From: a virus
Lineage: Duplodnaviria > Caudoviricetes
IMG/VR virus record: IMGVR_UViG_3300009149_000033
Location: 1-63,143 of that record
DNA length: 63,143 bases
Reading direction: 5' to 3' (one strand)
Below are positions 16,410-39,457 of this stretch, piece after piece. A program made the translations under genes and the position numbers. Below the pieces are notes generated by a model. It worked only from the letters and a program-made list of their open reading frames with translations, did not search any database and was not told where the DNA came from. Each line of letters opens with the position of its first letter. Position 1 is the stretch's first letter.

Positions 16410-16987
16410 TAAGAAGTTATCCTAAAAATTACAGTAAGGGTCATAGTATTTGTTTTTGAAATAACCGGAAAAGTCCTCCAGTTAACCATTGTACCACTGT
16501 TAGGCTCTTCTGTAGCATCCCCACCAAACAAAGATAGCTCCATTATAGGCCCTACAGCCTCAGCCTCCCCAAAAGAAATAGAATAATCCACAATATTGGT
16601 TTGAGTTTCTGTAGGCTCACCAGTATCTGGATCTACAAAAGTTGCTAAGTCTATGGATTTTCTATATAACTCGTTTTCAAGTCTTGTCTGAGAAGTTGTA
16701 GGAGCAGGAGGGTCTAATAACTGCCAGGAAGAATTGCCGCTACCGACAGCTAAATAAGAAATACCGTTGGTAGGCTCTGAGTTATCTTTTAACAATCTAG
16801 CTATTAGTATAGATGCTGTGTTTACTATAATATTAGATTTACGGTACTCGTGGACTAGTTCACCATTCTCATAGGCTTTAAGGTACAATTCTCCTTTTAA
16901 TTTTGTAGAATCGTCCTCATACTTGAGAGTAGGGCTCATCTTCATTAAATTAAAAAATCTTTGGATTCTTTCCTTAAAAATTGCCAT
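16409..16987 (-). CDS. Tail-collar or fibre-attachment-type protein
   Basis: NIIVN...ISYLAVGSG...PTTSQTRLENELYRK...EAVGPIMELSLF...FPVISK pattern, typical of phage tail-fibre attachment domains; GAGG RBS. Confidence 0.7.
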   Translation of the reverse strand: MAIFKERIQRFFNLMKMSPTLKYEDDSTKLKGELYLKAYENGELVHEYRKSNIIVNTASILIARLLKDNSEPTNGISYLAVGSGNSSWQLLDPPAPTTSQTRLENELYRKSIDLATFVDPDTGEPTETQTNIVDYSISFGEAEAVGPIMELSLFGGDATEEPNSGTMVNWRTFPVISKTNTMTLTVIFRITS

Positions 16988-21858: not shown

Positions 21859-22749
21859 CTACTCCACTTCTATATAGTTTACCTTTACCTCTATATCTTC
21901 ACCGGCTTCATTAGCAACTTTTAACGAAACAGTATATGTTCCAGGAGTCGTGTAGATATTTTGAGGGCCTGTCTCAGAAGAACCGCGACCATCCCCAAAA
22001 GTCCAATCGTACTCCTCTAAACTTTCACCAGCACTTAAATCTGTAAAATCTACAGCTAACGGAGCACTACCCGATAAGGGTGTGCCCGAAAACTCAGAAC
22101 CAGGTTTAACTTGCCTTACTATCGTAGGCTTCGGCACGGACTCTCCCTCAGCGCCACGAGGCCCTGTTTCTCCTACTATCCCTACTCCAGGAAGTCCTGT
22201 ATGGCCCCTACTACCTTGCACTCCTTCTATACCTGTTACACCTAATATACCTGTTATACCTGTATAACCTGTTTCACCCTTTGGTCCTGTCTCTCCGCGA
22301 GGGCCTTCTAACGTGAAATTCCCATAACCCTTATATACTTCTATATCTTCCGGTTTTACTCTTTTTATACCTGTCAACCCAGCAGTACCATCTTGAGTCA
22401 ATTTAACCAACAGCAAAGGAACCTTCCCAGAGATATTAGCAAAGACTCTAATCTCGCCCGAAGACACTTTATTGTAAGAAATACTGGGAACAACTTCTAT
22501 CTGACCCTTATCCGTCAAAACTATAAGAGCATAAAGTATTCCATTTACTTCATTAAAGATTCTACTTGAGAGAGTCTTCATGTAGTTTGTTACTGTTTGC
22601 TGTACATCTATTTTTAGATCGTTGAAAAAAATCCAACGGTTATTTACTAAGGTAGAGCCGCCTTTGATAGTGTACACACTATCTCCATATACATTTCTAT
22701 CTTTTTCCTTTAAACCGAAGCTTTGTTTTTCTATTCTTTTAAGTCCCAT
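21859..22749 (-). CDS. Collagen-like fibre protein A (N-domain, Gly-X-Y tract, PKD domain)
   Basis: Gly-X-Y tract at 22138-22305; PKD signature WTFGDG...YTTPGTYTVSL. Confidence 0.85.
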   Translation of the reverse strand: MGLKRIEKQSFGLKEKDRNVYGDSVYTIKGGSTLVNNRWIFFNDLKIDVQQTVTNYMKTLSSRIFNEVNGILYALIVLTDKGQIEVVPSISYNKVSSGEIRVFANISGKVPLLLVKLTQDGTAGLTGIKRVKPEDIEVYKGYGNFTLEGPRGETGPKGETGYTGITGILGVTGIEGVQGSRGHTGLPGVGIVGETGPRGAEGESVPKPTIVRQVKPGSEFSGTPLSGSAPLAVDFTDLSAGESLEEYDWTFGDGRGSSETGPQNIYTTPGTYTVSLKVANEAGEDIEVKVNYIEVE

Positions 22750-22763
22750 ATTAAAACCTAAAT

Positions 22764-22773
22764 TATTATAAGA
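22764..22773 (-). promoter_or_regulatory. Candidate late-promoter motif variant TCTTATAATA
   Basis: In a 27-nt gap, preceded by TAA as in copy 1, and 14 nt from the ATG (13 nt for the copy at 43592). Confidence 0.4.
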
Positions 22774-22776
22774 TTA

Positions 22777-23421
22777 TTAACTAAACGATTGAAAGGGAAA
22801 ATGAATAGTCCAACTAACACCAGTCAATCCTTGCTCCCCTATTTCTCCTTGGGCACCTATACCGTCTATTCCTGTCTCTCCTATATGCCCTGTTATCCCC
22901 CAGGGTCCCATTTGCCCTATTACCCCTGTTACTCCTCTAAGACCTGTATCTCCAGGCTCTATACCGCTCATACCTTGTGTACCAACTATATTCTTGTCTT
23001 TTATATTACCCGCGCCTGAAAAGACAACAATACTTGAGTCCGTTATACTTTTAAATGAATTAAGATCGTTAGTTCCATCCTGTACAAGTATAATCCCTAC
23101 AAAAGGTAAAAAAGTTGTGATTGCCGGAACAGGCACTCCGTTATTAGAAGAGTACTTAACTTGAGTACCTTCTGCCGTTCTAATCGTACCAAAGCTATCT
23201 ATTCCTATAACGAGCATCACGGAATAGCTTCTGTTTAAGAAAAATCTAGTACGAGGGGAAACTACTACATCCTTTATATAGTCCCTTATCTTATAATTTA
23301 TACTCTTATAAGATACCCATTTATTATCAATAACAACAGAACCAGAGCTTATGTTAACGGTATCCTCTGATATAGCTCTTACTTTTTTACCAGTTATTAA
23401 ATTATTATTAATCTTAATCAT
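22777..23421 (-). CDS. Collagen-like fibre protein B (N-domain, Gly-X-Y tract, short aromatic tail)
   Basis: Gly-X-Y tract at 22813-22983; N-domain resembles protein A (GSVVIDNKW vs GSTLVNNRW; LVQDGT vs LTQDGT). Confidence 0.85.
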   Translation of the reverse strand: MIKINNNLITGKKVRAISEDTVNISSGSVVIDNKWVSYKSINYKIRDYIKDVVVSPRTRFFLNRSYSVMLVIGIDSFGTIRTAEGTQVKYSSNNGVPVPAITTFLPFVGIILVQDGTNDLNSFKSITDSSIVVFSGAGNIKDKNIVGTQGMSGIEPGDTGLRGVTGVIGQMGPWGITGHIGETGIDGIGAQGEIGEQGLTGVSWTIHFPFQSFS

Positions 23422-23433
23422 ATTATCTTCCTA

Positions 23434-26400
23434 TTAATCAAATATCAAAGAAGGTCCTTTTTTACGGACAAAACCTGAAGGTGAAATCTCATTAGAGCCT
23501 AATGGTATATAAACTGTAACACCTCCATTTTCACACTCAGTTAAAGACCCAGACCCCTTAAAAACTGCTGCTGAAGCTTCTATGTCTGTGCCATCTACTG
23601 AGCTGTCTATTGTAGTGGTTGTATCTGTAACTATAATAGACCTTGTTACGGATTCTGTTTGGCTAAAAGAGTCAACTACAGTAAGCGTAACATTGTAGGT
23701 GCCTGTATTATTAAATACGTAAGAAAAAGTCTGAGCGCTAGAAACCGTACCTATACCAGATATCTCCCAAGCCCAAGTAGCTACCGAGTTATTAGATATA
23801 CCGTTAAATAGCACAGTTAAAGGAACTTTACCTGTAGATGGAGTCGCAAGAAATCCTATCTTTAGGTCAGAAGACCCAACAGTTATCTGAGCCGTTTTAT
23901 TTACAGTTATTAAAGAAGTTTCTTCTACGTTTAAATACCATATAATATCTACAGATACTGTATAAGTTCCGATGTTACTGTACACGTAGCTAGGTGTAAA
24001 CTCCTCAGAGTCAACTACACCGTCATTTGTAAAGTCCCACTGCACTTCACTTATAGTACTTGGCTGTCCATTAAGTAATGAAAAATTAACCGTTAGAGGA
24101 GCTTCTCCTGAAGAAGTAGAAGCAAATATGTATATATCCTCTACCACAGTAAAAGGCTCTACTACTGTGTATACTGTACTCTCCGTATCGGTAGCTTCAA
24201 GTTTAATGCTATAGGTTGCAGGAGCCAATATTTGTTGTGTAAAAACTTTATCCAGCGGATCAGTCGTACTCTTTGAAAAAACAACAATCTCTCCTAAACT
24301 AGGATCATCATAAATAATTTCCCAATCCCATTGTACTATACCAGAATCATTCACAGGAGTAATAATAAAAGTTTGTGGTACGTTCCCAGGAGTAGGAGCT
24401 ATGCTTATTTCAAGAGCGTCCGTTACGGTAACAGTTTTAGATACACTTGCATTAAACCCATATATATTATATACAGTCATTAAAGGATTAAACACCCCTA
24501 CTCCCGTATATGTGTGTAGAATAGTAGAACTTATAGTAGCACCTGTAAAACCATCCCCAAAGTCCCACTCCCAACCTGTTGGAGACCCTATGCTAGCATC
24601 TGTAAATAATCCAGTAAATGGTGTCTTGCCGCTATCTGGGGTAACTGTAAAATCAAGACTTAAGTCAGACACAAAAACTCTTAGTTCTGAAAGATTTGAA
24701 TCTCCCGCATTATAGTTAAAAACTGCTTCCGTAGGTAAACCTTCATCTAAGGTTAAAACAGCATCAAAAATACCTGCGGTAGTAAAGGTATGACTAACGC
24801 TGTAAGTAGCTCCTGGATTTGCTTTAAAATGGACCGGAGAACTATCCCCAAAATCCCACTTTAAAGTGTTAGGAGGTCCTCCTAAAATAGTAGTGGTGTA
24901 GGATACTGGATTATTTATGTACAAAGCATTAGGGTTAACAGTTATAGTAAGACCGATAACTACTAACTCAGTTGACGAGGATACAGTCTGTTTAGTGTAG
25001 TCTAATCCAGACACTCCAATATCTCTAGCAATAGCTTCTACCGTATAAGTACCTTCAGTGAGGTACCCACTATACTGCAATCCCGTAACATTAGAATCAG
25101 TATCTCCATTACCTAAATCCCAGGAGAAAGCCTCATACGGAGGGTCTGGTATAGGGTCTAAGGGTCTAGTAGCTCCTGTTACCCCGATATCAAAAGTTTT
25201 AGGCACACCCCCGTACCAGGCATCAGGGTAAGCTATAACACTATAACTTAATTCTTTTACAACTACAATGTATCCTACTTTAGTTTCGGTTGTTCCAGTA
25301 TCTCCATTTATATAAAGAGAAACAGTATAAACTCCCTCTCCTACGTATTCGTGCGTAGGACTTCTAGTAGTAGAAGTACCGCCATCACCAAAGTCCCAAT
25401 TCCAGGAAGTAGCTCCCGTATCATATAGGGGCTCAAACGAAACATTTACAGCATAATTAGCCCCTCCAAAAGTAGCTTTAGCTACTATCTCATTATCTAC
25501 ATCTTTGTAAATAAAATTTGTAGCATCCCCTTTAAGGCTTAAAACTAACCCGAAATAAAATGCTCCAACACCAGTTCTAGACTCACCCCACAAACCTACA
25601 GGATAGTTTGTATAAGATCCAGACCCAGGGATAGAAATACTAGAACCTATCCTAATGTAAGAAAAGCCTTCTTTTGTATCGGAGATAATAGAAGTAAAAG
25701 AGGGCCACGATATTCCTAAATTTTGTTGATTAGTACCTGTATATGTTATTCCTGTTCCAGACCATGTCGTGTCTGTTTGAGCTACATCTTGTAAATCTAT
25801 TGAATTGTAGGTCCAGGAACCGGGTGTAACCGCAGGAGTATCAATAACAGAATCTAGTATATCCGTGTCGCTATCTTTTGAACCATAAGGAAAACTACTA
25901 GAATCTCCGGGAGTAACACCTTCTGCTTGAAACTTAAAACACCCCATACCGTGATTATCAGCACCTTCAGCATTTAAATAAAAAGCATCTGAGTAACTAT
26001 GGGACCCGGTCACTGCTATCCAGTCATAAGGATTATCTACAGAATACTCTGCAGTAATAACACCACTAGTACGAGTAAGCCTACAATAGACTTTTCTAAA
26101 AGGAGAATAACTTACTGTAGCAGAGCCTATATTATCAAAAGTTAAAGTACCTGGATCGTACGTGAATCCTGTTTCTACAGCATCAGTAGAAGAATTTATA
26201 ACCAATATTTTTTGAGATATATTACCTGTATTTACATCTGCTAGAGCAAAGCACATTTCTAGTATAAAATCGCCGGTTAATGAAATACCCGCTGGAGTTA
26301 GTTGTACGCTAGTATTCCCATTCTGTACCGCTACATAACTACCGGAACCCACAGGCCTTTCCTCAAGCTCAAACTTATTAGCATCAGTAGTAAACTCAGA

Positions 26401-28407
26401 GTTCCACCAACTATCAAATTCTCCAGCAAAAGGATCTTCTATATATGCCCACCCATCTTCTACCCAAGAAGGGATTTCTTCGAAAAATGCTATAGGAGAC
26501 CCAGAGGAAATTAGGTTACAACCCATTATATCTTTACTACCTGAACCTACCTTAACTTGCCCAGAAGCATTAAAGAACATATCTTTAATTTCTGTATTAC
26601 CTACATAAGGATAAACCACATAACCAGACAGGCTTATATCAGTGTCCGTATATACTACTCCATTGTATAAACTAATACCTGAAAAAGTTGCGCTATTTGC
26701 TTTAATACCCCAAGGCCCGTTTGTACCGTTATCCCAATCAATTACTTTATTATTTGAAAAAGGATTTAATTCGTTACGCCACACTAAATCGTCAGTTGAT
26801 TCTAAAGTTATATCCCTATACCCTTTAGCACAAAAAATAGATCTATTTTTAAGAGATACTACATCTGATAGATAAGCGTAAGTTGCCGGATAAGAAGAGT
26901 CAGACCCGTCTGTTACCGAAGTATCATTACTTGTGCTTATATCCACATAATAGTAAGACGGAAAATTAATAACACCGTATATAGACTCTCCTATAGCGAA
27001 CTCCTCTAAATCTATTTCAGAAAAAGACGGAAGCGAAGGAGTAGACCAGCTATACTCATTCCCTCCTCCATCAACATACGTTCCTGAAGGATCCCCTTGT
27101 ATATCTGAAAAGTCTGATCCTCCAAATTTAGTATTAGAAATAGTAACGGTAGTATTATTTTGAGCGCTTACAGAAGTACTACCAGAAGAAGCCCCCTCTA
27201 TTAAGCACCCATCTACGTTTAAGTCACTTGCTATGTTTGAGATATAGGCGTCACCCACCAAAGTAGAATTTACCATGTCCCCGAAATACATATACAATAT
27301 GACAGGACCAGAACCTACGTATACATACATATTTTCTATTTCTGCCAAATTTAGCGACGAAACTAAATTATAGAGTATTCCGTTTTTTGTAGTAGCGTAC
27401 AGGCTTGAGGAGCTATCAAAAGAATAAGATCCTCCAAAATCTATCCTCCAAGGACCATATTTGCCGAGATTCCAAGCTTCTATAGTATATCTACTACTAG
27501 CGAGAGGAGTATAATCAGAAGATAAAGTTTTTGATCCTCTACATTTAAAAGTAAGACCGTCTGTGGTTATAGCTATAAACTCATCCCAACCTATACAATC
27601 TTCCCCATAATAACCGTTATTCCCTGTTGAAGATTCATTAAAATTTACATAATATGTTTTACCGTTAGCCCAACTATCCCCATAACCAACCCCTCCTATA
27701 GATGTTATGTCAGAAGGAGTTCCTCCTCCTAAAGAAAAATCTGTGAGGTTTTTAGAAGTTATAGTAGGCTTAACAGGAGGAGTCCAACCATAAGTAATAT
27801 TAGACTCGTTTATTGTCCCAGTGCCCGGGAACAAAAAAGCTGCAGAATCCGCTAGGTCAGTTATACAATTACTTATATTTAGAGTAGCAGATCCCTCTAT
27901 ACCTATAGGTTTTCCAATAAAAGCGCATCTAGATATATTATTCACACTACTATAAAAACCTACCTTAGTGGATATAGATGGAGACACAGAATAAAAAGTG
28001 CAGTCTTCAACATCTCCATTAATGCGGGAACTGCCTCCTACCAAAATATCAAAATACATCCTTTTAGCGCCGACAGGTCCATTTAAATATATAGAACCAG
28101 CCTGAATTATCCCGTCCTCTAAATAAGTTGAGGTAGAGAAAGCATTAACACTTGGAATATTTATACGCCAAGGACCATATTCGTCTAAATCCCAAGCAAT
28201 AAGAGATACATTGGTAAAAAAGGTATAAGTAAGAACATAAGTACTATAATTCTTAGTGCCTCTTAATAAAAACACAGTATTATTTGTTGAAGAATTCGAT
28301 AAAGAAGTTATCATCTGTTCCGCAGAATAAGGGTCAGTACTAGTACCTACGTGACCTACACTTGTATAACTGTCGTCTAAAAAAACATATATTCTTCTTT
28401 GCGCCAT
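23434..28407 (-). CDS. Multidomain adhesin-like virion protein: three beta-helix-like modules and about seven PKD-like domains
   Basis: Three Y[VF].....W-x5-GPW modules; PKD-like signatures WDFGDG, WDLGNG, WDFGDS, WDFGDG, WDWEI, WDFTNDG and WAWEISG, most followed by GxYTV. Confidence 0.8.
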   Translation of the reverse strand: MAQRRIYVFLDDSYTSVGHVGTSTDPYSAEQMITSLSNSSTNNTVFLLRGTKNYSTYVLTYTFFTNVSLIAWDLDEYGPWRINIPSVNAFSTSTYLEDGIIQAGSIYLNGPVGAKRMYFDILVGGSSRINGDVEDCTFYSVSPSISTKVGFYSSVNNISRCAFIGKPIGIEGSATLNISNCITDLADSAAFLFPGTGTINESNITYGWTPPVKPTITSKNLTDFSLGGGTPSDITSIGGVGYGDSWANGKTYYVNFNESSTGNNGYYGEDCIGWDEFIAITTDGLTFKCRGSKTLSSDYTPLASSRYTIEAWNLGKYGPWRIDFGGSYSFDSSSSLYATTKNGILYNLVSSLNLAEIENMYVYVGSGPVILYMYFGDMVNSTLVGDAYISNIASDLNVDGCLIEGASSGSTSVSAQNNTTVTISNTKFGGSDFSDIQGDPSGTYVDGGGNEYSWSTPSLPSFSEIDLEEFAIGESIYGVINFPSYYYVDISTSNDTSVTDGSDSSYPATYAYLSDVVSLKNRSIFCAKGYRDITLESTDDLVWRNELNPFSNNKVIDWDNGTNGPWGIKANSATFSGISLYNGVVYTDTDISLSGYVVYPYVGNTEIKDMFFNASGQVKVGSGSKDIMGCNLISSGSPIAFFEEIPSWVEDGWAYIEDPFAGEFDSWWNSEFTTDANKFELEERPVGSGSYVAVQNGNTSVQLTPAGISLTGDFILEMCFALADVNTGNISQKILVINSSTDAVETGFTYDPGTLTFDNIGSATVSYSPFRKVYCRLTRTSGVITAEYSVDNPYDWIAVTGSHSYSDAFYLNAEGADNHGMGCFKFQAEGVTPGDSSSFPYGSKDSDTDILDSVIDTPAVTPGSWTYNSIDLQDVAQTDTTWSGTGITYTGTNQQNLGISWPSFTSIISDTKEGFSYIRIGSSISIPGSGSYTNYPVGLWGESRTGVGAFYFGLVLSLKGDATNFIYKDVDNEIVAKATFGGANYAVNVSFEPLYDTGATSWNWDFGDGGTSTTRSPTHEYVGEGVYTVSLYINGDTGTTETKVGYIVVVKELSYSVIAYPDAWYGGVPKTFDIGVTGATRPLDPIPDPPYEAFSWDLGNGDTDSNVTGLQYSGYLTEGTYTVEAIARDIGVSGLDYTKQTVSSSTELVVIGLTITVNPNALYINNPVSYTTTILGGPPNTLKWDFGDSSPVHFKANPGATYSVSHTFTTAGIFDAVLTLDEGLPTEAVFNYNAGDSNLSELRVFVSDLSLDFTVTPDSGKTPFTGLFTDASIGSPTGWEWDFGDGFTGATISSTILHTYTGVGVFNPLMTVYNIYGFNASVSKTVTVTDALEISIAPTPGNVPQTFIITPVNDSGIVQWDWEIIYDDPSLGEIVVFSKSTTDPLDKVFTQQILAPATYSIKLEATDTESTVYTVVEPFTVVEDIYIFASTSSGEAPLTVNFSLLNGQPSTISEVQWDFTNDGVVDSEEFTPSYVYSNIGTYTVSVDIIWYLNVEETSLITVNKTAQITVGSSDLKIGFLATPSTGKVPLTVLFNGISNNSVATWAWEISGIGTVSSAQTFSYVFNNTGTYNVTLTVVDSFSQTESVTRSIIVTDTTTTIDSSVDGTDIEASAAVFKGSGSLTECENGGVTVYIPLGSNEISPSGFVRKKGPSLIFD

Positions 28408-28408
28408 A

Positions 28409-29233
28409 CTATATACCTAATTCCTCTTTATCTATGTCCATCAAATCTTTAACCCAAGTATCTGTTAAAGTTACTCCTAAAGCAAATCTCCAATTATATA
28501 AAGTTATGCTCTGACCTGCTTCATACACATAAGGGCACCAAACGTCTCCTCCACCTATTCTTTCTGCTAGGTTATACGCTATTGAGTATTCTAACCCCTC
28601 ACTATCTATACCTTCTCTAGCAGGCACTATTTTATCATCTACAGAATATCTCATAGTACCGATATTATCAACACATACCCACCTTAAAAAATGCCATTGA
28701 TTATCCTCTAAATCTACGCCTACAGATTTATTTATCAGCTGACTCTCAGAATTATTAAAAACAAACTTATAATCCCCATCCTCTCTTAACAACATAAACT
28801 TAAGCGAACTCTCAGACTCCAAAACATCTCCTGCATTATCTTCTACTGCCAGAGGGACCACATAGTCACCGTTTTGGTAGGAAGGAGATTTTATCCACCC
28901 TATAGTAATAAATTCAGTACATGCTTTATATGGGACTGTCTCAGCGCTTGTTCCAGCATAATGCTCGTTGAGTGAAAACTTATTGTCGAAAGAATTAATA
29001 TAAGCTGTTTTTGTTGCTACAGAGGACTCTAAAGTAGAGGTGTTTGTCGCAGTTAGAACAACAGAGTACTGCCCCTCATCCGCATAATAATGGGAAGGGT
29101 TCTCTTCTGTAGAAGTGCTACCATCGCCAAAATCCCAAACGTATGAATCTGCGTTAACAGAATAATTATAAAAAGTTACTTTAAAAGGGTAAACACCCGC
29201 TAAAGGGGAACCACTAAACTTGGAGAGGACCAT
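28409..29233 (-). CDS. PKD + LamG/ConA-like domain protein
   Basis: WDFGDG...NPSHYY...GQYSVVL; then FITIGWIK...QWHFL...YSVD...YNWRF, a LamG-like pattern. Confidence 0.75.
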   Translation of the reverse strand: MVLSKFSGSPLAGVYPFKVTFYNYSVNADSYVWDFGDGSTSTEENPSHYYADEGQYSVVLTATNTSTLESSVATKTAYINSFDNKFSLNEHYAGTSAETVPYKACTEFITIGWIKSPSYQNGDYVVPLAVEDNAGDVLESESSLKFMLLREDGDYKFVFNNSESQLINKSVGVDLEDNQWHFLRWVCVDNIGTMRYSVDDKIVPAREGIDSEGLEYSIAYNLAERIGGGDVWCPYVYEAGQSITLYNWRFALGVTLTDTWVKDLMDIDKEELGI

Positions 29234-29282
29234 CTAAATCTCCCACAAATAAATAAAATATAAGTATCAATTAGAACTGAGA

Positions 29283-29292
29283 TATTAATAGA
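29283..29292 (-). promoter_or_regulatory. Candidate late-promoter motif TCTATTAATA (copy 2)
   Basis: Exact 10-mer in a 67-nt intergenic gap. Confidence 0.5.
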
Positions 29293-29300
29293 TCATAATA

Positions 29301-31805
29301 TTAGTCGCTTAAACCATCAGCTTTGCCCCATAAACTAGCAAAATAACTGGTAAGGTCCTGTTCCCCGTACCAAATTTTTAACTCATCTATCACAAATGAG
29401 CTATTTAGGGCGGAATAAAGCCTCTTTTTTGTGGGACTCTCTGGTGAGCATGTAGATGTAGTTATCATATTAATCTCTCTAATAAAATTATTTGGATCCC
29501 CTACGTACATTTTATTAGACCCTGGATTAAATTGAACAAACGTCCAATTATTTATATTTATGATCTTATCTACCGACCTATAAGTCACCCTCTCATTCTC
29601 AAAAACAAGATGTCCCTCTTGGTCTAAATAAAAATTCCAGTATCTTCCTTCGCCCTTACTATCTGATTTAGCCATAATTAAATTAGGCTCGGCTATGTCT
29701 GGATTAACCGCTATATAGTTTACCTTAGATTCTATATCAGATGTTACACCGTCAGTAACCGTTAACTGAACGGTATAAATACCGGCACTTTCATAAGTAT
29801 AGATTACGCTCGTGTCATTGCCTGTCAGAGTTGTCCCATCCCCGAATACCCAAGTTCTAGCTGTAATAATACCGCCTGTAGAAGAATCTGTAAAAACTAC
29901 CTGATGAGGAGTTGTTCCTACTCTAGGAGTACCGGAAAAAGCGGCTAAAAGACTTACAGAACCAACAGTAATATAGTCCGTTAAAATTAAGGTGTCAGAA
30001 GTTCCATCCGGACCAGTTATAGTAAGTGTTACGGTATAGGTACCACTAGAAGAGTACACATTAACAGGATTCTGTGCAGTATCTGTGTTAGTGTCCCCAA
30101 AATCCCAAGCATAGCTTAGTATGATACCTGTAGAAGCCTCCGTGAAGCTTACAGACAAAGGAGCGCTACCAGAAGTAGGAGCCCCTGTAAAAGAAGCTGA
30201 AATAGGAGGAAAATAATAAGCGCCCATTCCGTACCTAGAATTACCCGACAAACCAGAACTGTATCCTGTTTTATTTGCGTATAGAGAAGAGGTGTCGTTC
30301 AGTACTGTATATATTTCTGAAGGGTATAGATAGTCATTTTCTGTATAGGTAGTGCTAAATGTAACATCTGAAACATTTACATTAAAAGCAGAGTCATACA
30401 CATTTAGCTCGTTGGCCCCAGGACTCCCAGTAATATCAAAAAAACCCGCGATACTATTAGAGACATAACTAAACACAGAATTTATAGCGTTGTAATAGAG
30501 ATAAACAACAGTACCAATATCTGACGGTCCTACGTCCTTTACGTATGAGTCAACGATATTAATCACTTCAAAAGTAGAGCAGGAACCTATCCTAGAAGGA
30601 ACCCCAGAACTTATAATTGTGCTTCCTTTTACTATATAATAAAAAAAGGTATCTGAATAATTACGTGGGTAAGACGAGGAAAAAACTATTCTGTTTGCAT
30701 TTATGTAGCAGTCATTAATACCGTAAGTAGATAAAATAAAATCATCCTCGGTACGTATAATAGCCCCACTTATTTTTGTACTCTGAAAACTAATACTACC
30801 GTCTCTTTTTACGCCCCAAGGGAGAGACCCCCATTTTTCTAAAGATACAGACTCGTTAGCGACTAAAGCTATGCTTCCTGAAGAGTCATCGAACCCTCTT
30901 ATTTTAACTTTAGTCCCAACACTAAATGATGTAAAACTAGCATAGAATTGAGTTGAGTTGTATGGAGAGAGCTCCGTTCCTGTGCCTGTAGAAGTCCCTG
31001 AATCTAAATCCACATAGACCTCAGTATTAGCCCCACTTCTACTATAAAAGGCTCCTACTGATATTGGTTTTAATTCTCCATCGAAATGAAACTTTGTCTT
31101 AAAAGTGCTACTAGAAACAGTAATGCCTGTAGGTAATTCCGGGTTATCGTCTATGTCCGAAAGTAGCGTAAAGGAAAAAAAGTCTTGATTATTAAATAAA
31201 TTAAACCAGCCAGAAAATCCTGGGTCCGGCGTGATAGCTGTAGTATCATAATTATATGTACAACGACTTATAGCCGCAGAAGACGCAGAAGAAGGTATGG
31301 TTATACCGTTCTCTACGTAAACACAGGTTTCATTTAAACTACCCCTAATTATTTCAAGTATACCATCTACTTGAAAAGTACTACTAAAAAAATTACACCT
31401 TCCAGAAGCTGATCCTAGCGTAAGTTTATCAGAAGCACTTGTTGTCTGTCTATAAAAATTAACATTATAATAATCTTGATAACTAGAGCCACCAAGCGCT
31501 ATATCTCCTGTTTGATTTAGTATAATAATGCCGTCATAGATCTCACCTGAGGAAATAAACTTAGAGATATCTGTTATCTCTAAACGCCACGGCCCAAACT
31601 CTTCAAGATCCCAGGCACATATAGGGGAGCTTCCTGTTAAGGCTGTAGAGGATGAAGATACAGTGGCTTTGCCTTTTATAAAATAATAATAGCTTGATCC
31701 TACAGAATTATAAGAAGAAACAAAATCTTCGTACGAGAAAGGATCTTCTATAGTACCCGAGTAACCGGTACCTGATTTACTAAAATCTGAAAAATAGGAT
31801 GACAT
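29301..31805 (-). CDS. Adhesin-like protein: two beta-helix-like modules, two PKD domains and a C-terminal partial LamG-like domain
   Basis: GTIEDPF...AWDLEEFGPWR; YVDL...GTGTELSPY...KWGSLPWG; PKD signatures WDFGDT and WVFGDG; C-terminal WTFV...IDELKIW. Confidence 0.8.
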   Translation of the reverse strand: MSSYFSDFSKSGTGYSGTIEDPFSYEDFVSSYNSVGSSYYYFIKGKATVSSSSTALTGSSPICAWDLEEFGPWRLEITDISKFISSGEIYDGIIILNQTGDIALGGSSYQDYYNVNFYRQTTSASDKLTLGSASGRCNFFSSTFQVDGILEIIRGSLNETCVYVENGITIPSSASSAAISRCTYNYDTTAITPDPGFSGWFNLFNNQDFFSFTLLSDIDDNPELPTGITVSSSTFKTKFHFDGELKPISVGAFYSRSGANTEVYVDLDSGTSTGTGTELSPYNSTQFYASFTSFSVGTKVKIRGFDDSSGSIALVANESVSLEKWGSLPWGVKRDGSISFQSTKISGAIIRTEDDFILSTYGINDCYINANRIVFSSSYPRNYSDTFFYYIVKGSTIISSGVPSRIGSCSTFEVINIVDSYVKDVGPSDIGTVVYLYYNAINSVFSYVSNSIAGFFDITGSPGANELNVYDSAFNVNVSDVTFSTTYTENDYLYPSEIYTVLNDTSSLYANKTGYSSGLSGNSRYGMGAYYFPPISASFTGAPTSGSAPLSVSFTEASTGIILSYAWDFGDTNTDTAQNPVNVYSSSGTYTVTLTITGPDGTSDTLILTDYITVGSVSLLAAFSGTPRVGTTPHQVVFTDSSTGGIITARTWVFGDGTTLTGNDTSVIYTYESAGIYTVQLTVTDGVTSDIESKVNYIAVNPDIAEPNLIMAKSDSKGEGRYWNFYLDQEGHLVFENERVTYRSVDKIININNWTFVQFNPGSNKMYVGDPNNFIREINMITTSTCSPESPTKKRLYSALNSSFVIDELKIWYGEQDLTSYFASLWGKADGLSD

Positions 31806-32330
31806 TTATATCTCCAAACACCTTCTATGATCTATGTACCCAACCTTCATACCTATATCTGTAATATACTCACAGACACACCGACAATTACAGCTAATTT
31901 CATTATTAAACTCTAAACCTATTAACACGTCTCTTCTTATCAGCATGCATGCAATATCCGTATGAAAATTATCAATCAATTTATAAATTTTTTTAGCCCT
32001 TGTGTTTATCGCGACAGCTGCAAATTCTTTGTTATCTTTTAAAAAATTAATTAAATCCTTTACATCATTCTCCCGCTCTAGGACGACATCTCTATTTAGC
32101 ATCAAAAAATATTCTGCTTCGTATTTTTTTAAAGCTTCATTTTTAATTATATTTCTACATTCCGACATAGACAAGTAACCTTCTTTAGCTCTACCATATC
32201 TGCTACTCATAGGCCTGGATACTGTCATTATATCTATGTCTACTGTTTGCTTGTACAATCCTTCGTATATTTCTTTCCTAATAGCATGCCCATCTTTAAG
32301 TGGTATCATGGCTACCAACCGTTCACTCAT
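31806..32330 (-). CDS. Minimal GT-A-fold (GT2-like) glycosyltransferase-like protein
   Basis: VAMIP...CRN...A.....EYFLMLNRDVVL (NxD at the DxD position)...ACMLIRRDVL...GMKV. Confidence 0.6.
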   Translation of the reverse strand: MSERLVAMIPLKDGHAIRKEIYEGLYKQTVDIDIMTVSRPMSSRYGRAKEGYLSMSECRNIIKNEALKKYEAEYFLMLNRDVVLERENDVKDLINFLKDNKEFAAVAINTRAKKIYKLIDNFHTDIACMLIRRDVLIGLEFNNEISCNCRCVCEYITDIGMKVGYIDHRRCLEI

Positions 32331-33871
32331 ACCGGCAACTCTCCTATTTCTAGATCATAGATAGAGTTTACTGTTTGAGCTGTTAAAACCTCTTGTGTAA
32401 TAGCAAACCTTGGTTTAGAAATTTCCACAACTTTACCTGCGGATTCTATCCTAGGCATATAAATCCTATAATTAGAACCTGTTGAACTAAGCTCAAACCT
32501 GAAATTAGAGGCAGATAGTAAAGTTTTATCTACATAAACTTTTACGTAATAGCTATTATTTTGGTCTACTGTCATTGTAATTAGATGCCATGTAGTATCT
32601 GTTATATCGTGCGTAAGAGTAACTGTATTTGAGTTAGATACTGTAAGCTGGCTAGAGCCTGTAATCTCTATTTTTGAGTAGGTAATTGTCCCTGTACTAT
32701 CTGTAAGCTCCCAAAGTTTAACACCTGTTACTCCTGTTCTTACCCACGTAGAAAAATTAGCCTTATTAAAGTATGGATCTCCTACCCCAGGTACCGTAAT
32801 GGCAGAGCTAAAACTAGGGAAGGTGCTTGTACCTTTGTAGAGGGAGCCAGACCTAAAAAAAGCAGAATTTTGGTCTGCTGACCTTTTGTAATAAGCTCCT
32901 CCGGAGAATGCTATAAAAACAGCATCTTCTGTAGATTTAATATCGTCTACTTCCATGTCTTCCTGGCTAAACCACCATGCACCTATACCGCTAGAAGCAT
33001 ATTTCCTATTTGTAACAGATCCACTATCAACTTCTCTTATTTCTCCGTGTAGTCCTTGCTCGTACCCTGTATGATCTCCGTCAGATAGCTCTACTGTAAC
33101 AGAACTTGTAGTATAGTTAGGGACTGACGAGGATACTCCCTGAGGAGTTATGAGAATTTGCTCTGATAGTAGGGTATTTATATCTCTTGTCGATGGTGTG
33201 TTACCTGTGTACGGTAACCTTGAATATAAGGGGGCGGTCCATCCGTATTGCGTATCGTCTGATGTACCCTTAGTAATGTTAGTGCCCCCGTAAAATTCTG
33301 ATGCTCCGGTACCGTCCACTAAATTAACTACACAGTTATTCACATTAACAGTAGTTGCTATTAAAGATTCTATAGGATTTTCACATATTACAGTACTATC
33401 TTTTAGCGTAAAAGTAGAAGAAGCAAAAATAGCCCCTACAGTACCTTTTGTTATAAGAGTACTTCCTTCGCAAAGACCGCCCGTAAAAGTAAACTTACTG
33501 TCCGTATCTTGAGCGATAAGCATAACATTTCTTAAAGCCTCTATGCTACACAAATCTGGGGTATTTAGATTTATGACCCCGCCCTCAAAATCCACTAATC
33601 CTAAATCGAGCTCTAATGGAGAATCAATTACCCAAGGACCAAACTCTAAAAGATTCCAGGCAAGTACTGATACATTAAGTAAAGAATCTCTTACTAAAGA
33701 AGGATTGTAGTAATACCCTTTTAAAAAGAATCTATCCGTATCAGCAGAAGAATAACCGTTAACAACGATACCCTGTAACAGATCAAAAAATTGATCTGCA
33801 CTATAGGGGTTATCAGTGCTATTAGCTCCCGTAGCATTTAAACCATTTAAATCTATATACCAACTAGACAT
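32327..33871 (-). CDS. Adhesin-like protein: one beta-helix-like module plus a LamG-like domain
   Basis: WYIDL...DNPY...FFLKG...AWNLLEFGPW; C-terminal FSTWVR...WHLITMTVD...VYVD...LTAQTVNSIY. Confidence 0.75.
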   Translation of the reverse strand: MSSWYIDLNGLNATGANSTDNPYSADQFFDLLQGIVVNGYSSADTDRFFLKGYYYNPSLVRDSLLNVSVLAWNLLEFGPWVIDSPLELDLGLVDFEGGVINLNTPDLCSIEALRNVMLIAQDTDSKFTFTGGLCEGSTLITKGTVGAIFASSTFTLKDSTVICENPIESLIATTVNVNNCVVNLVDGTGASEFYGGTNITKGTSDDTQYGWTAPLYSRLPYTGNTPSTRDINTLLSEQILITPQGVSSSVPNYTTSSVTVELSDGDHTGYEQGLHGEIREVDSGSVTNRKYASSGIGAWWFSQEDMEVDDIKSTEDAVFIAFSGGAYYKRSADQNSAFFRSGSLYKGTSTFPSFSSAITVPGVGDPYFNKANFSTWVRTGVTGVKLWELTDSTGTITYSKIEITGSSQLTVSNSNTVTLTHDITDTTWHLITMTVDQNNSYYVKVYVDKTLLSASNFRFELSSTGSNYRIYMPRIESAGKVVEISKPRFAITQEVLTAQTVNSIYDLEIGELPV

Positions 33872-33874
33872 TTA

Positions 33875-35026
33875 TTAAAACTCCAGTATTGTGTCCCAAA
33901 TATCAGCGCCTGTTATTGTTACTAGCTTATAAACATAGCTGGTACCGGCTAAGTTTGTTGCTGTTAATTTTACTATATAATCTCCAGTAGTTGCATAATT
34001 ATGCTGAGGATTTTGACTAGTAGAGCTCCCACCGTCCCCAAAATCCCAAACCCAAGAGGTTGGGAAAAATTTAGAGTTGTCCACAAATCTAAATATATAA
34101 TTTACTGCATCTATAGTCTCTACTGAAAAATCTGGTAAAGGAACTTGCTCTAGCTTAACCCAAGCAGATATAGTACCTCCTGTATACCCTTGGGCTCCTG
34201 TTATGCTACCTCCTATACCAAAAGGATAGTAAATAGCTCCAGACTCTCCAAAAGGTAAAAACATATTTCTTTTATAAGCAGAGTAACCGCCGTTATATAC
34301 TACCTTATGAGCATAATCTACTATACCTTCTTCACGTATAAAATAAGATTCTCCTCCAGACAGTCCCCACTGCACACTTCTTTCGTAGATAGAATAATCA
34401 GTTAAGTCAAAGTCATTAGCTTTAAACTTTAGATAAAGCTGTAGTCTTTCATCAGGGTAATATCCTGTCTCCCCTTTTGGACCCGTATCCCCAGAAATGC
34501 CAAAGCCTGTTATACCCTGTAAACCCGTTAATCCTTGTAACCCGTCTTGTCCGGTTTCCCCCTGAGCTCCTGTCTCTCCTTGAGCTCCTGTTTCTCCTAG
34601 TAAACCTTTTACTCCTGTTTCTCCTTGCACCAAGCTATTGCTTATAGAAAAAGTAGACATTTGTGAAAATTCATTCACATGGTCTACCACATAACTTTTA
34701 GACTCTTGCTTTAGAACAAATTGTGCTATAGGAATAGTATTTCTAAAAGCTTGGGCAGAAGCCCTAGAAACATAACGGGTGTAGAGTCCTACCTTTTGGT
34801 ATACGAACTGAACCGGCTTTAATTGATAGTATACATTTACAACAGCATACTTACCTTTATCCTCTGGGAGAGTAAAAAAGTCCCTATTTAAAATAGGTAT
34901 GACCAAGTTGTTAATTTTAATAAATCTATTATTATATACGATAGTGCCTATATTAGCAAGATACTGTACCCCTGTAGAGGTCTCTTTTTTAATAATAGAA
35001 TTGTTATTTGTTATTTTGAGCTCCAT
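33875..35026 (-). CDS. Collagen-like fibre protein C (N-domain, Gly-X-Y tract, N-terminal part of LamG, PKD)
   Basis: Gly-X-Y tract at 34457-34624; LQLYLKF...D.S...TISAWVK immediately followed by a PKD domain (WVWDFGDG). Confidence 0.85.
34563..34598. repeat. Tandem 18-nt duplication encoding GETGAQ twice
   Basis: tgagctcctgtctctcct / tgagctcctgtttctcct (17/18 identical). Confidence 0.8.
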
Positions 35027-35034
35027 AGCAGCCT

Positions 35035-38000
35035 TTACATCCTTACAAGAGGTTTATTTGTAAGTCGATAAATATTTATAGCCGTATCTGCCTCTTCAAA
35101 AAATCCTGTTCTGTACTCTTCTCCATTATCTGTGAAAGTACCAACTTTATTCTCGTTTCTAGCTTTGTATACTTTAGAAATTATGATTAATACTAATTCA
35201 CCTCTTAAAAAAGGTTTAGTTATATCAGAACGAACTCTGCCTAATACGGGAACAAATACTTTTCTAGGAGTACTTATTGATAAAGGTAATGCCTCGTATA
35301 TTAAGTCTTTAGAAGCTTCCTCATAAAAAGTTCTGCCTAAACTATCTCCTACATTATTAGGAGAAGAAAAAATAATATCCCCACTATAATTATTAGAAAT
35401 AGTAGCAGGCAACTTTATGAATCCTGTCTCTACTGTAAAGTTAATGAGGTCTATGTCGTCTATATTAGAAAAAATATTATCATTTAAAAAACTATTATCG
35501 TTTACAGCTATATGCTCTATAGGACTCTCGTAAGGCTCAGGGATAATTACACTACTACTCCCCGTACCCAAATTAGACACATAAACAAAGTCTGACCCCT
35601 TTATTATCTCTACGGTCATGGATTCAGGTAGATCTTTTACACTCTGGTAAGGTACATACTTGTAAAAAACATTTGCAGTTGTGTTTGTAGCATCTTGAAG
35701 ACTAGGCAAACTAAATTGCTTTACTATTATAGGTATATAAGCTGTACCGTTTCTAAGATTGACCCGAGAATCTATATTAACCGTTACTATTGAAGTCCCC
35801 AAATTTTCTACCGATGATATAGGTACTGCTGCATAATAATCCATGCTACTCTCTGCCTGATACCATAAATACATCTGTCTGTTTTTTTCCCTTGTAGGAA
35901 AAGAGCTTACCCCCAATACTATACCATTAGCTAATTCTTCTAAACCAGAAGCCGGGTTTAGGAGGTCTACAGTAACTACATTTGTTACATCATTATCTTG
36001 AAGAGCTAAACCACTAACAGGATACATAATAGATTTATAAAATCCTGTTATACCCTTAGAGGTAACCCCATAGTTAGAAACATAACCAGCCCTATAGGCC
36101 CCTATATTCTCTCCCTTGTTAGATACAGTAATGCCTAAATTAGCCTGAACATTATCACTAGGAAACGTCATAACCTCTAAAGTTACTTCAACTATGCTGC
36201 CAGCAGGAATTATGTAGGCATCATCAAGATATACTATAAGATTAGAATCATCGGTAGTAGATTCTACCGTTTCTTCCCTATCTCTTATCGTTTTAAAATC
36301 TTGAAAAGTTGTAGCTACCCTATACTGAGAACCGTTAACATTACGAATATCTTTAACTGCAAATACAGAGTACTCGTTAATATTCTTAGGTACCTTAAGA
36401 ATTTTTGTAGAACTCTCTACACGAGTAAAGTAGTGGTACTCTATTAATGAGCCTCTAAATTGCTGCTCCCTGAATTTGTTTATAGACCTATTGTAGTCTG
36501 GGTCTGTTTCCGAGGCGGTTCCTGCGTCCTGGTACAGAGACAATTCATCAGAGTTTCTTGTATCAATAGCAGAATTTATTACTGTATAGTCTTTATAACC
36601 AGAGACCCTTTCGGTTAACTCTTCTATAATCTCACTAGAAATGTTTTTATTTATACCTCTATAGTAAAGCTTATTAGTAACATCACCAGGAACATACGTT
36701 ATACCTAGAGGTATCTTAGGAACTCTCTTAAGACCTACGCCGCTATAATCTAGATAAGTTGCTTTTAATCTGTAAACAACATTATCTGTCCCACCTGTAG
36801 GCGTATAATTTTGATCTATAGTAAAGGTAACACTGCTTGTTCCTAAACCTTCAAAAACACCCTCTACATCCTCTGTAACAGTTTCTGTACTCTCTACTAT
36901 TCTTACTGCCTGAGCGGAGTAAAAAGAAGGATCGTTATGAAAAAGCCCCTTCTGTATAGGGCCAAAAGTTAATTCTGTAGGAGTAGGAGTAGGATCCGCT
37001 GGTACATCCCTAACTCGCTCTACAAGAGAAGCTTCAGAAGTTACTTGCCCATTTAATAATGGTCCTATTTGAGTGGCTCCTGCATACGTATCCACAGTAA
37101 ACACAGAAGTACCGTATTGACTACCCTCTTGGCTTCTGTTTGATATACTGGTATAAAGACTATTATCCAAAAGATTATTAAAATCTTTTTCTAATAGGTG
37201 ACTGTAGGAATTGATGTTAATTTTTCTACGTATATCTACAATATCTCTTTCTCTAATTTCCTGGTAGGTTTGCAGATCAGGTCGTATAGCCCCGAGATTT
37301 TCATAGGTAGACCCGTTAATGTTAGAGTTAGGATCGAAGGGGGATAAATTTCTTCTTGTTACAAAAAACATAGGCACTGCATAAGCGTACCCGTCGACCG
37401 TGTTTTTACAGCGAGACCTCCATAAACCATAATCTCCGTTCTCAGTTCCCATGTTTTGAAAGAAATAATTTCCTGCACTAGACTCTGTAGTGTTAGGTCC
37501 TAAGCTGTATATATAGTCAGCGCCTAAACCTGCCTCAGGGAAATTAAAGGGGTCAACACCCTCTACGCTCCTTATCCTATACTGTATCTGCATTCTTTTA
37601 GTAGTCTCTACCCCTACCAAAGGATTAATAATATTGTCTATTAGGTATTCCTCTGCCTCGGACTCTATGTTACCTTCTGGGTATACTCTTCCTGAACTTT
37701 TATACACTAAATCTGTAGACTGTTCAGAAAAAATTCCTGCATTATAATTTAAAATTACCCCGTTATTTGATACATACCATCCTAAAGTACCTGTCACGTA
37801 AAAAGCGCTATTAAAAGAATTTCCATAGTCAGTGGACACCGTCTCCCACTTAGACCCACTATTATTAGTTTTTAAAAGAATTCCGTTGGTACCTGTTATC
37901 CAAGCTTTATCCTCTAACGAAAAATCTATAACAGCCGCACTGTCCGAAGTAAAAGAACCTGAGCCAGACCTTAAATCAGAAAGAGTCACGGGTACGTAAT

Positions 38001-39456: not shown

Positions 39457-39457
39457 T

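Follow-up and report, generated by a model that had tools for sequence, protein, structure and literature searches.

Three divergent collagen-like genes in a phage baseplate module as candidate chains of one mixed stalk

Introduction

Does a phage that encodes three different collagen-like proteins of nearly equal stalk length wind them into one mixed triple helix, or does each protein build a stalk of its own? The question is raised by a 63,143-nucleotide stretch of viral DNA (Duplodnaviria; Caudoviricetes; IMG/VR record IMGVR_UViG_3300009149_000033, positions 1 to 63,143), referred to below as the window, in which three genes, A, B, and C, each encode an N-terminal domain followed by an interrupted Gly-X-Y tract (Table 1). 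A preliminary description had proposed a heterotrimer like complement C1q, which is made of three different chains from paralogous genes. Collagen-like proteins of prokaryotes and phages (the Scl/Bcl type and phage tail fibres) have been described as homotrimers (PMC8968730).

If the proposal is true, giant phages would provide the first known case of a natural mixed-chain collagen outside animals. A natural, short, hydroxyproline-free set of three self-sorting chains would offer collagen chemists a genetically encoded ABC system, and, with bacteria as the expression host, chain selection, register, and kinks would become open to study. Phage biology would gain an account of how a trimeric fibre fits an asymmetric baseplate wedge, and of how huge phages build branched adhesins out of PKD and sandwich modules. 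Even if the proteins are homotrimers, an invariant ruler of 56/57 residues, its hinge fixed and its surface greasy, stays unusual, as does a split payload domain.

Table 1. Features of the window (position 1 is its first nucleotide). L078 is a divergent related locus.
Feature	Position	Strand	Description
192-aa protein	16409..16987	(-)	Like baseplate-wedge tail-fibre-network component; Pfam PF25691 BW3TFN; phrog_5417
Chain A gene	21859..22749	(-)	296 aa; N-domain followed by collagen tract of 56 residues and PKD domain; ORF
Chain A PKD payload	21862..22113	(-)	About residues 213-296; Pfam PKD_4 at 232-294
Chain A collagen tract	22138..22305	(-)	Residues 149-204; 13 GXY + GV + 5 GXY = 56 residues
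Chain A N-domain	22312..22749	(-)	Residues 1-146; beta-rich, in no named family; AF2 places strands at 25-138 (block pLDDT 62-83)
Chain B gene	22777..23421	(-)	214 aa; N-domain followed by tract of 57 residues and aromatic tail of 11; ORF
Chain B aromatic tail	22780..22812	(-)	11 residues, motif W-x-I-x-x-P-F-x-x-F
Chain B collagen tract	22813..22983	(-)	Residues 147-203; 2 GXY + GIEP + 10 GXY + GI + 5 GXY = 57 residues
Chain B N-domain	22990..23421	(-)	Residues 1-144; hhalign vs A N-domain
Variable insert between C and B	23434..33871	(-)	PKD-rich fibre-like proteins of 1657, 274, 834, and 514 aa; 174-aa protein
Second beta-sandwich half	29517..29651	(-)	Residues 719-763 of 834-aa PKD protein (gene 29301-31805)
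Chain C gene	33875..35026	(-)	383 aa; N-domain followed by tract of 56 residues, half beta-sandwich, and PKD; ORF
Chain C post-collagen domain	34142..34456	(-)	About residues 191-295; first half of beta-sandwich intact in L078 chain B
Chain C collagen tract	34457..34624	(-)	Residues 135-190; 13 GXY + GF + 5 GXY = 56 residues
Chain C N-domain	34631..35026	(-)	Residues 1-132; beta-rich; AF2 strands at 10-119, block pLDDT about 71-90
Baseplate wedge genes upstream of C	35035..42829	(-)	Baseplate_J protein and propeller protein
1473-aa protein	35035-39456	(-)	BNR/Ycf48-like propeller, wedge-position gene; Pfam PSII_BNR
1123-aa Baseplate_J protein	39458-42829	(-)	Pfam Baseplate_J

Results

Translation of the open reading frames reproduced exactly the tract layout given in the preliminary description: thirteen units, a break of glycine plus a hydrophobic residue (GV, GI, or GF), and five triplets, with the break after unit 13 at the same position in all three chains. 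The extra residue of chain B in unit 3 (GIEP) was seen, and the tracts started between residues 135 and 149, as claimed. That the X and Y residues largely differ between chains was also borne out, since identities in non-glycine columns amounted to only 5/37 (A-B), 8/37 (A-C), and 4/37 (B-C); at the nucleotide level, 83 of 168 positions were identical between the A and C tracts. The Pfam Collagen profile (PF01391, cut-off 27.2 bits) scored 31.1 in A, 28.9 in C, and 27.0 in B, i.e., 0.2 under the cut-off in the last case. Collagen and PKD were the only Pfam families found in A and C, and Collagen the only one in B; many PHROG collagen-like tail-fibre families matched the chains. Orthologs were collected for A (n=22, identity 43-75%), B (n=6), and C (n=16, identity 43-75%).

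The composition of the tracts is unusual. Hydrophobic residues occupied the X position in 49-76% of triplets, 2.5-4 times the 19% calculated for 104 other collagen-like proteins, and proline was rare (2-11%). Threonine made up 34-43% of Y positions, a feature shared with other collagen-like proteins from bacteria and viruses, whose Thr-rich triplets are described in PMC11923368.

The triad genes sit in a contractile-tail baseplate module. Gene C directly follows the 1473-aa wedge-position gene, and the order is alike in locus L009, with wedge genes and then C. The wedge genes upstream of C matched Pfam Baseplate_J (E 8.4e-16) and PSII_BNR (E 4.5e-24), as well as the baseplate wedge subunit family phrog_6 (E 7e-22), and the 192-aa protein matched phrog_5417 (E 6.7e-26) and PF25691 BW3TFN (E 6.5e-6; its 26.7 bits fall slightly short of the cut-off, 27). 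The order C ... B-A recurred in 17 triad sets from related phages of ~465 kb, comprising 12 viral-contig genomes and those metagenome loci, 5 out of 28, whose sequence extends far enough. N-domain HMMs detected C, B, and A in every locus spanning the region, and a 466,729-bp, 98%-complete genome contained exactly one C-type and two A/B-type N-domains, the same counts being found in three other long records. Of the 28 metagenome loci, 26 had B immediately upstream of A, and the remaining two contigs end just after B. The insert between C and B measured 1.9-7.3 kb in other genomes and was absent in L078, where C, B, and A are contiguous; in all other loci C was 1.9-10.4 kb from B-A.

The three N-domains had been taken to be related. 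For A and B this was confirmed by hhalign on N-domains only (Prob 99.2, E 1.6e-19; identity 21-28%), but not for C, whose comparison with the A and B N-domains was non-significant (E 0.033 and 0.068; E 0.0083 with deeper profiles). C shares with A/B few motifs, though these occur in the same order, and its size and strand order are similar. The N-domain of chain A belonged to no Pfam or PHROG family and gave 0 matches in a PDB sequence search.

Tract length was compared across 64 distinct ortholog tracts that passed extraction (A 25, B 26, C 13). The break position was constant, and the glycine period of three was kept throughout. The C tract contained 56 residues in 13/13 cases and the B tract 57 residues in 26/26; chain B of locus L033 has 56. 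Chain A was 56 residues long in 20/25 tracts and 57 in the other 5, and in 4-5 of the 25, as well as in several database orthologs, it consisted of 19 clean triplets with no break, while B and C of the genomes with a break-free 57-residue A retained a one-residue-short break. The A tract reached 59 residues in the divergent L078-like clade, and that of L033 carried a 38-residue non-collagen insert. The break was often a 5- or 8-residue unit in orthologs, and its type was identical in all three chains in 1 of 14 triads, the window's own (GV/GI/GF). Because orthologs down to ~40% identity retain both length and break position, the match between tracts reflects homology under constraint and not chance. 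It had been suggested that co-variation of tract lengths among relatives would separate joint assembly from mere duplication history. The lengths were near-invariant and the rare changes affected a single chain (A 57, A 59, the L033 insert), so this comparison does not discriminate between the readings.

The different payloads claimed for the three chains were recovered, namely PKD domains in A and C and the aromatic tail in B. The PKD profiles (PF18911/PF00801, cut-off 27) scored 44.6 bits in A and 52.8 in C, with PKD_4 E values of 1.6e-11 and 4.3e-14, respectively, and fold matches were 1l0q_A for A (Z 13.2, rmsd 1.4, 81 aligned) and 4l9d_A for C (Z 12.1). In chain A orthologs, the PKD domain was replaced by a tail of only 8-9 aa (in many genomes), by an acidic tail of 38-41 aa, or by up to 264 aa of PKDs. 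The B tail was 11-15 aa long in every examined locus but L078, and the post-tract payload of C was 161-207 aa in triad loci, the L078 clade excepted.

The post-collagen domain of C (AF2 pLDDT about 68-78, with 255-291 disordered) had been called half a LamG domain. Its status as half of a domain is supported by comparison with the intact version in L078 chain B: residues 6-42 of the L078-B payload matched the C ortholog of L022 at 192-228 (phmmer, E 2e-4), and residues 103-147 matched the window's 834-aa protein at 719-763 (E 6.8e-5). As to the LamG identity, no Pfam family, LamG included, matched the C post-collagen part, the C-terminus of the 834-aa protein, or the intact L078-B payload up to E = 10; weak LamG-type matches were confined to neighbouring genes (Laminin_G_2, E 0.0094; Laminin_G_3, E 0.012). 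In 10 other loci, the second half of the sandwich was the C-terminus of a ~220-230-aa gene that comes just after C. The L078 clade has the roles swapped: B holds the intact sandwich, C stops one residue past its tract, and the A-like proteins P0172 and P0175 end exactly with the last triplet. The sandwich is thus borne by exactly one chain, usually C and in this clade B. Payloads that are uneven over the chains and movable between them fit what one joint assembly predicts, and a sandwich on one chain with bare chains flush with the helix end suggests a mixed helix, for which it is natural, while it would be odd for free-standing homotrimeric fibres.

Charge complementarity was scored against triplet-order shuffles. 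Cross-chain pairs in ABC exceeded the shuffles at z 3.4-3.6, although the z values ignore shared ancestry and the signal is not robust. With the same disregard of ancestry, homotrimer motifs gave z 2.2-2.3 for AAA, 2.6-2.8 for CCC, and -2.9 for BBB, the last shrinking to -1.3 once one break residue was included, and the net score per trimer was highest for CCC (2.21 vs 1.43 for ABC). The scores do not discriminate trimer compositions.

Discussion

From the comparison of sequences and gene order, we regard A, B, and C as chains of one baseplate-attached stalk, with a mixed 1:1:1 collagen triple helix as its likeliest form, at a probability not far short of even. The three beta-rich N-domains would fix the proximal end to the baseplate wedge, and the tracts would wind into a single helix about 16 nm long, the collagen rise being ~0.29 nm per residue. 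The one-residue-short interruption, 17 residues from the distal end, may act as a hinge or kink. Past the helix, only one chain would run on into the beta-sandwich; the others would stop, or bear short tails or PKD modules. The payload is split in most genomes, with its first half on C and the second at the C-terminus of a PKD-rich protein, which might dock at the stalk tip by complementation in trans, and the PKD and sandwich modules may serve in adhesion. The helix surface is unusually hydrophobic, and the stalk would therefore be expected to pack against other protein instead of standing free in solvent.

A mixed helix is supported by the single-copy conserved triad and by the invariance of stalk length and break position despite N-domains that are 21-28% identical (A-B) or undetectably alike (C), as well as by a payload that sits on one chain and can move between chains, and by the contiguity of the genes in L078. 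The cross-chain charge pairs of ABC add weak evidence. Analogy points the same way. A heterotrimeric fibre present in six copies per baseplate is made from the consecutive paralogous genes gp35/36/37 of mycobacteriophage Mysterious (PMC13252515, preprint), and a heterotrimeric tail complex from neighbouring paralogous genes of virophage DSLV2 (PMC12724248). Unlike these proteins, which have beta-sandwich or gp37-like folds, the triad is collagen-like; B and A are adjacent and paralogous, whereas C is contiguous with them only in L078 and its paralogy is non-significant by sequence. A fuller reading, which we advance tentatively, is that the stalk, fixed at 19 triplets minus one residue, is a natural A:B:C heterotrimeric collagen, the first outside Metazoa, in which non-identical N-domains would solve the mismatch between a trimer and a single wedge, the split one-chain sandwich would be completed in trans, and the asymmetric stalk would form a branched adhesin hub.

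The triad, a candidate heterotrimer, resembles C1q in its three different genes, in globular modules at the distal end, and in an interruption at an aligned position, although in 13 of 14 triads the chains do not share one break type. No gC1q domain was found by Pfam (Collagen and PKD in A and C; Collagen in B, which ends 11 residues past its tract). Unlike C1q, the triad has its conserved globular domain at the N-terminus and its main payload on one chain, and is Thr-rich with little proline. With Scl/Bcl-type and phage collagens it shares Thr-rich Y positions, the lack of hydroxyproline machinery, and tail-fibre PHROG matches; it differs from them in its fixed length, bare chains, one-chain payload, and more hydrophobic X positions.

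Three separate homotrimeric stalks, A3, B3, and C3, are a serious possibility, if a rather doubtful one. They would be paralogous baseplate fibres, perhaps lying side by side in a bundle and splaying apart at the hinge like the stalks of MBL and C1q, with the ancestral length and hinge retained because each stalk spans the same fixed baseplate distance. To treat aligned interruptions as typical of heterotrimers is a weak premise, because the short stalk of homotrimeric MBL is also bent by a single G-Q-G interruption, with lateral association of the helices that lie N-terminal to it (PMC9898670). The GV/GI/GF breaks in the window are likewise of the G1G type, but MBL has one gene and one chain type, whereas the phage set comprises three divergent genes with the same layout. 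A baseplate precedent is staphylococcal phage 80alpha, whose paralogous fibres FibL and FibU have homologous N-domains and occupy separate baseplate rings, FibU combining a baseplate-docking N-domain with a collagen-like segment (PMC7048315). Changes of length and register are confined to single chains (A 57 or 59, the L033 insert, the extra residue of B), the break type is matched in one triad of 14, and the self-complementary charge motifs of A and of C exceed the shuffles; all of this tells against a mixed helix, and the hydrophobic X positions fit lateral packing of helices. However, homotrimers would need two kinds of stalk with an empty tip (B in almost all loci and A in many genomes), and in the L078 clade both A and C end 0-1 residue past the helix. 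They would further need three independent constraints for equal length and hinge position in the 64 tracts, and they offer no reason for a sandwich on exactly one chain or for its move from C to B.

A mixed helix of A and B alone (A2B or AB2), with a separate homotrimer of C beside the wedge protein, is improbable. The adjacency of A and B and their homologous N-domains agree with it, as do the non-significant similarity of the C N-domain and the distance of C from B-A in all loci but one, which count against the three-chain helix, and the position of C beside the 1473-aa wedge-position gene. AAB exceeds the shuffles in charge score (z 2.2-3.5) and the best net score is that of CCC, but these scores are not robust, and the equal tract length and break position of C, as well as the C/B payload swap in L078, where the three genes are contiguous, would be left unexplained.

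Finally, a different fold or an extended linker in place of a collagen triple helix is very improbable, since the atypical make-up of the tracts, their Pfam Collagen scores at the cut-off, and AF2 monomer pLDDT values <50 across them are set against the PHROG matches, a monomer run that is not expected to model a triple helix, the Thr content of the Y positions, and a strict glycine period of three in all 64 distinct tracts.

Three collagen-like chains with matched tracts

Every long ORF in the window (a 63,143-bp virus record, 13% complete by CheckV) lies on the minus strand, and Pfam recognised Collagen in the products of three of them, chains A, B and C, together with PKD in A and C. The tract of chain A consists of 13 triplets, the residues GV and 5 triplets, and that of chain C of 13 triplets, GF and 5 triplets (56 residues each); chain B has an A-like layout with a third unit of four residues and a GI break (57 residues). 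The preliminary description had assigned Gly-X-Y tracts of this layout to the three genes and had found their X and Y residues mostly different. Translation of the ORFs recovered all three tracts in place, and few non-Gly columns proved identical (5/37 for A-B, 8/37 for A-C and 4/37 for B-C). Over the tracts, A and C are identical at 83 of 168 nucleotides. X positions in the triad are hydrophobic in 49-76% of triplets; in a reference set of 104 unrelated collagen-like proteins (6,999 triplets) the figure is 19%. Y positions hold Thr in 34-43%, and Pro is rare.

Coordinates of the three chains, the payload halves and neighbouring features in the window
Feature	Position	Strand	Remarks
DNA polymerase	1089-4826		family A, with intein
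Chain A gene	21859-22749	minus	296 aa
Chain B gene	22777-23421	minus	214 aa
Fibre-like protein	23434-28407		1657 aa
Fibre-like protein	29301-31805		834 aa
Second half of beta-sandwich	29517-29651	minus	in 834-aa protein
Small protein among fibre genes	31806-32330		174 aa
Fibre-like protein	32327-33871		514 aa
Chain C gene	33875-35026	minus	383 aa
First half of beta-sandwich	34142-34456	minus	chain C, after collagen
Propeller protein	35035-39456		1473 aa
Large ORF	46959-57569		3536 aa

Conservation of the triad

Database searches returned full-length orthologs of the chains at 42-75% identity: 22 among 27 matches for A, 6 among 7 for B, and at least 16 for C among the matches listed (300 of 1,906 candidates), the other matches to C covering the collagen part only. 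When six-frame ORFs from the fetched loci were scanned with HMMs of the three N-domains, each locus spanning the region proved to have a single C, a single B and a single A, giving 17 triad sets (12 distinct viral-contig genomes and 5 of the 28 metagenome loci). A 466,729-bp, 98%-complete record has one C-type N-domain and two of the A/B type, no more, and so have three further long records. The A/B N-domain is rare: a set of 1.84 billion proteins contained 28 representatives of it (E <= 0.001). A tblastn search of chain C against 50,697 phage records yielded no match, and thus no cultured relative among them.

Gene order is constant (C, a variable insert, B, A), the insert being 10.4 kb long in the window and between 1.9 and 7.3 kb in other loci; the C, B and A genes of L078, a locus of a divergent clade, are contiguous. 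B adjoins A in 26 of the 28 metagenome loci, and the remaining two contigs stop just after B. No linked contigs of the L078-like clade were found in viral contigs or genome contigs.

Tract length and interruption

Anchoring on flanking motifs allowed 25 A, 26 B and 13 C tracts, all distinct, to be extracted; seven ORFs with anchor failure or truncation were left out. All 13 C tracts measured 56 residues and all 26 B tracts 57, and the A tracts had 56 residues in 20/25 and 57 in 5/25 cases. The interruption always fell after ~39 residues, at the cost of one residue of triplet count. Its form varied (G-x-G or a unit of 5 or 8 residues), and the same type was present in all three chains in 1 of 14 triads, that of the window. 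Four A tracts are runs of 19 clean triplets, and B and C in those genomes retain the break. In locus L033, the B tract, which lies outside the set of 26, has 56 residues, and chain A is broken after triplet 10 by a non-collagen insert of 38 residues. In the divergent L078 clade, the tracts of the A-like proteins P0172 and P0175 run to 59 residues: 14 triplets, then a unit of 5 residues, then 4 triplets. Tract length is nearly constant, and any change is confined to one chain.

The insert in the L033 A ortholog (L033 15193-16206) is acidic and resembles an acidic C-terminal tail motif (..IQD..W..D..D..IQ..) carried by many A orthologs and absent from chain A of the window.

N-domains

A related N-domain had been proposed for all three chains. 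This held for A and B, which are homologous (hhalign on the N-domains only: Prob 99.2, E 1.6e-19); for C, the comparisons with A/B were not significant (E 0.033 and 0.068; E 0.0083 with deeper profiles). The C N-domain is close in size to those of A/B and has a few motifs in common with them in the same order. AF2 modelled the N-domains as beta-rich, their strands following a similar order, at a block pLDDT of ~71-90 (C) and 62-83 (A). Searched against PDB sequences, the A+B profile gave 0 matches and the C profile nothing better than E above 0.3; no Pfam or PHROG family matched these domains. Fold searches of the PDB and BFVD were made with whole-chain C and A models, so that PKD/Ig matches filled all four lists. 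An Atlas search gave sub-threshold matches only: the same lactophage RBP "shoulder" cluster for C (0.89) and A (0.84), as well as DUF4815 clusters at TM 0.31-0.36.

P0177, a collagen-free database protein of 794 aa, has four copies (E 5.5e-11) of the motif at the C-terminal end of the A/B N-domain (..P-L-x-L-V-x-x-Q-D-D-G..); P0179 (267 aa) was noted alongside it. This sub-domain therefore exists outside the triad too.

Payloads and a split beta-sandwich

After the tract, B has an 11-15-residue aromatic tail in all loci but L078. A continues for 8-9 residues in many genomes, for a 38-41-residue acidic tail in others and for 92-264 residues of PKD in the remaining ones; C continues for 161-207 residues, L078 excepted. 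In L078, C ends one residue past the tract and B bears a 174-residue payload, an architecture repeated in the database proteins P0171 and P0174. The A-like partners of these two, P0172 and P0175, stop right at the final triplet and have Cys as their last residue. The payloads of the three B proteins of this clade have an invariant Cys in common, and a disulfide staple is conceivable.

The L078-B payload (L078 1084-1626) was used as a phmmer query against 14 loci. Its residues ~85-170 matched the C-terminal part of the gene of ~220-230 aa that immediately follows C in 10 loci (L009, L017, L018, L022, L024, L028, L034, L067, L069 and L071; best match L018, E 6.6e-11). Residues 103-147 matched residues 719-763 of the 834-aa protein in the window (E 6.8e-5), and the second-half region also matched stretches inside longer proteins of L019 and L033. 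The post-collagen domain of C was matched by residues 6-42 (E 2e-4). Judging by these two-part matches, the payload that is intact in B of L078 is split elsewhere, with its first half on C and its second half C-terminal in a separate PKD protein. The split has PKD domains to either side. The arrangement suggests that the halves may dock by complementation in trans. Neither half matched a named family in Pfam.

Mixed helix or homotrimers

A mixed A:B:C collagen triple helix is our leading candidate, held tentatively at a little under an even chance. Counted in its favour are the strict, single-copy triad, the invariant length and hinge position across deeply diverged paralogs, and the contiguity of C, B and A in L078. 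So are the sandwich payload, which is always on exactly one chain and can move from C to B, and the bare chains, which end flush with the helix. Heterotrimeric fibres made from consecutive paralogs are, moreover, known in phages (PMC13252515, PMC12724248).

Counted against the mixed A:B:C helix are indels private to single chains, break types that are unlike between chains in most genomes, and self-complementary charge motifs in A and C. A single break of this kind is also found in a homotrimer: in MBL, one G1G break bends the stalk, and the helices bundle laterally N-terminal to it (PMC9898670). Three homotrimers, A3, B3 and C3, separate or bundled, are a serious possibility, with the balance somewhat against them. 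The undemonstrated homology of the C N-domain to A/B also counts against the A:B:C helix; a helix mixed from A and B next to a C3 homotrimer is improbable. That the chains form no triple helix at all is very hard to credit.

Prediction of the full-length A+B+C complex, scored for chain B and run without controls, gave ipSAE values of 0.18 and 0.14, the mark being 0.32, and is counted on neither side. Charge pairs in same-genome ABC sets exceeded those in cross-genome sets (p 0.034 and 0.0095), a comparison confounded by correlated charge density. Relative to triplet-order shuffles, ABC was favoured, and AAA, CCC and A/C mixtures equally so; charge-pair modelling, uncorrected for shared ancestry throughout, was rejected as a discriminator of trimer type. 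B showed a self-pairing deficit (z -2.6 to -2.9) that shrank to -1.3 and -0.9 once the residue before post-break triplets was counted, and the proposal that B cannot self-pair was dropped because the deficit vanished on so small a scoring change. The charge-pair tests excluded L033 because of its A insert, and some of the shuffle tests also left out L034, L073 and L078 (anchor failure or truncation).

Among the papers listed in literature searches, none described a naturally heterotrimeric collagen of bacteria or phages. C1q is a heterotrimeric kinked defence collagen, and such kinked collagens (C1q, MBL) are the closest analogues of the triad in function. The triad lies outside the C1q family because it is without a gC1q domain, none being found by Pfam. 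Among phage collagen-like fibre proteins, the triad is a variant that is new, rare and conserved: its ruler is fixed at 56/57 residues and its hinge is fixed too, its surface is greasy, its payloads are uneven and one payload domain is split.

Genomic context

The region around the triad encodes the fibres of a contractile-tail baseplate. Genes upstream of C encode a Baseplate_J wedge protein and a BNR-propeller protein of 1473 aa, and downstream of A is a gene for a 192-aa protein resembling a tail-fibre-network component; in L009 the order is the same, wedge genes and then C. The 1473-aa protein, in a gp7-like wedge position, has a Ycf48/BNR-type beta-propeller (PSII_BNR, E 4.5e-24, four stretches), and L009 encodes its ortholog.

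On reading by eye, the proteins of 1657, 834 and 514 aa encoded between C and B have similar N-terminal ~100 aa, with a W-D/N-L-x-E-F/Y-G-P-W motif in common; they look like a second paralogous fibre set with interchangeable PKD-rich ends. The 174-aa protein among the fibre genes matched no Pfam or PHROG family; a glycosyltransferase would be a natural suspect, conjectured purely from the Thr-rich tracts.

Elsewhere in the window, an intein with Hint and intein-splicing domains and a LAGLIDADG endonuclease interrupts a DNA polymerase of family A that has a 3'-5' exonuclease, and a single 3536-aa ORF lies upstream of the baseplate genes. The 466,729-bp record (G004, behind locus L021), which IMG/VR classes as a provirus, has more very large collagen-repeat ORFs, located at ~33-39 kb and 367.5-369.9 kb; one encodes 2562 aa, and another, of 988 aa, immediately follows chain A.
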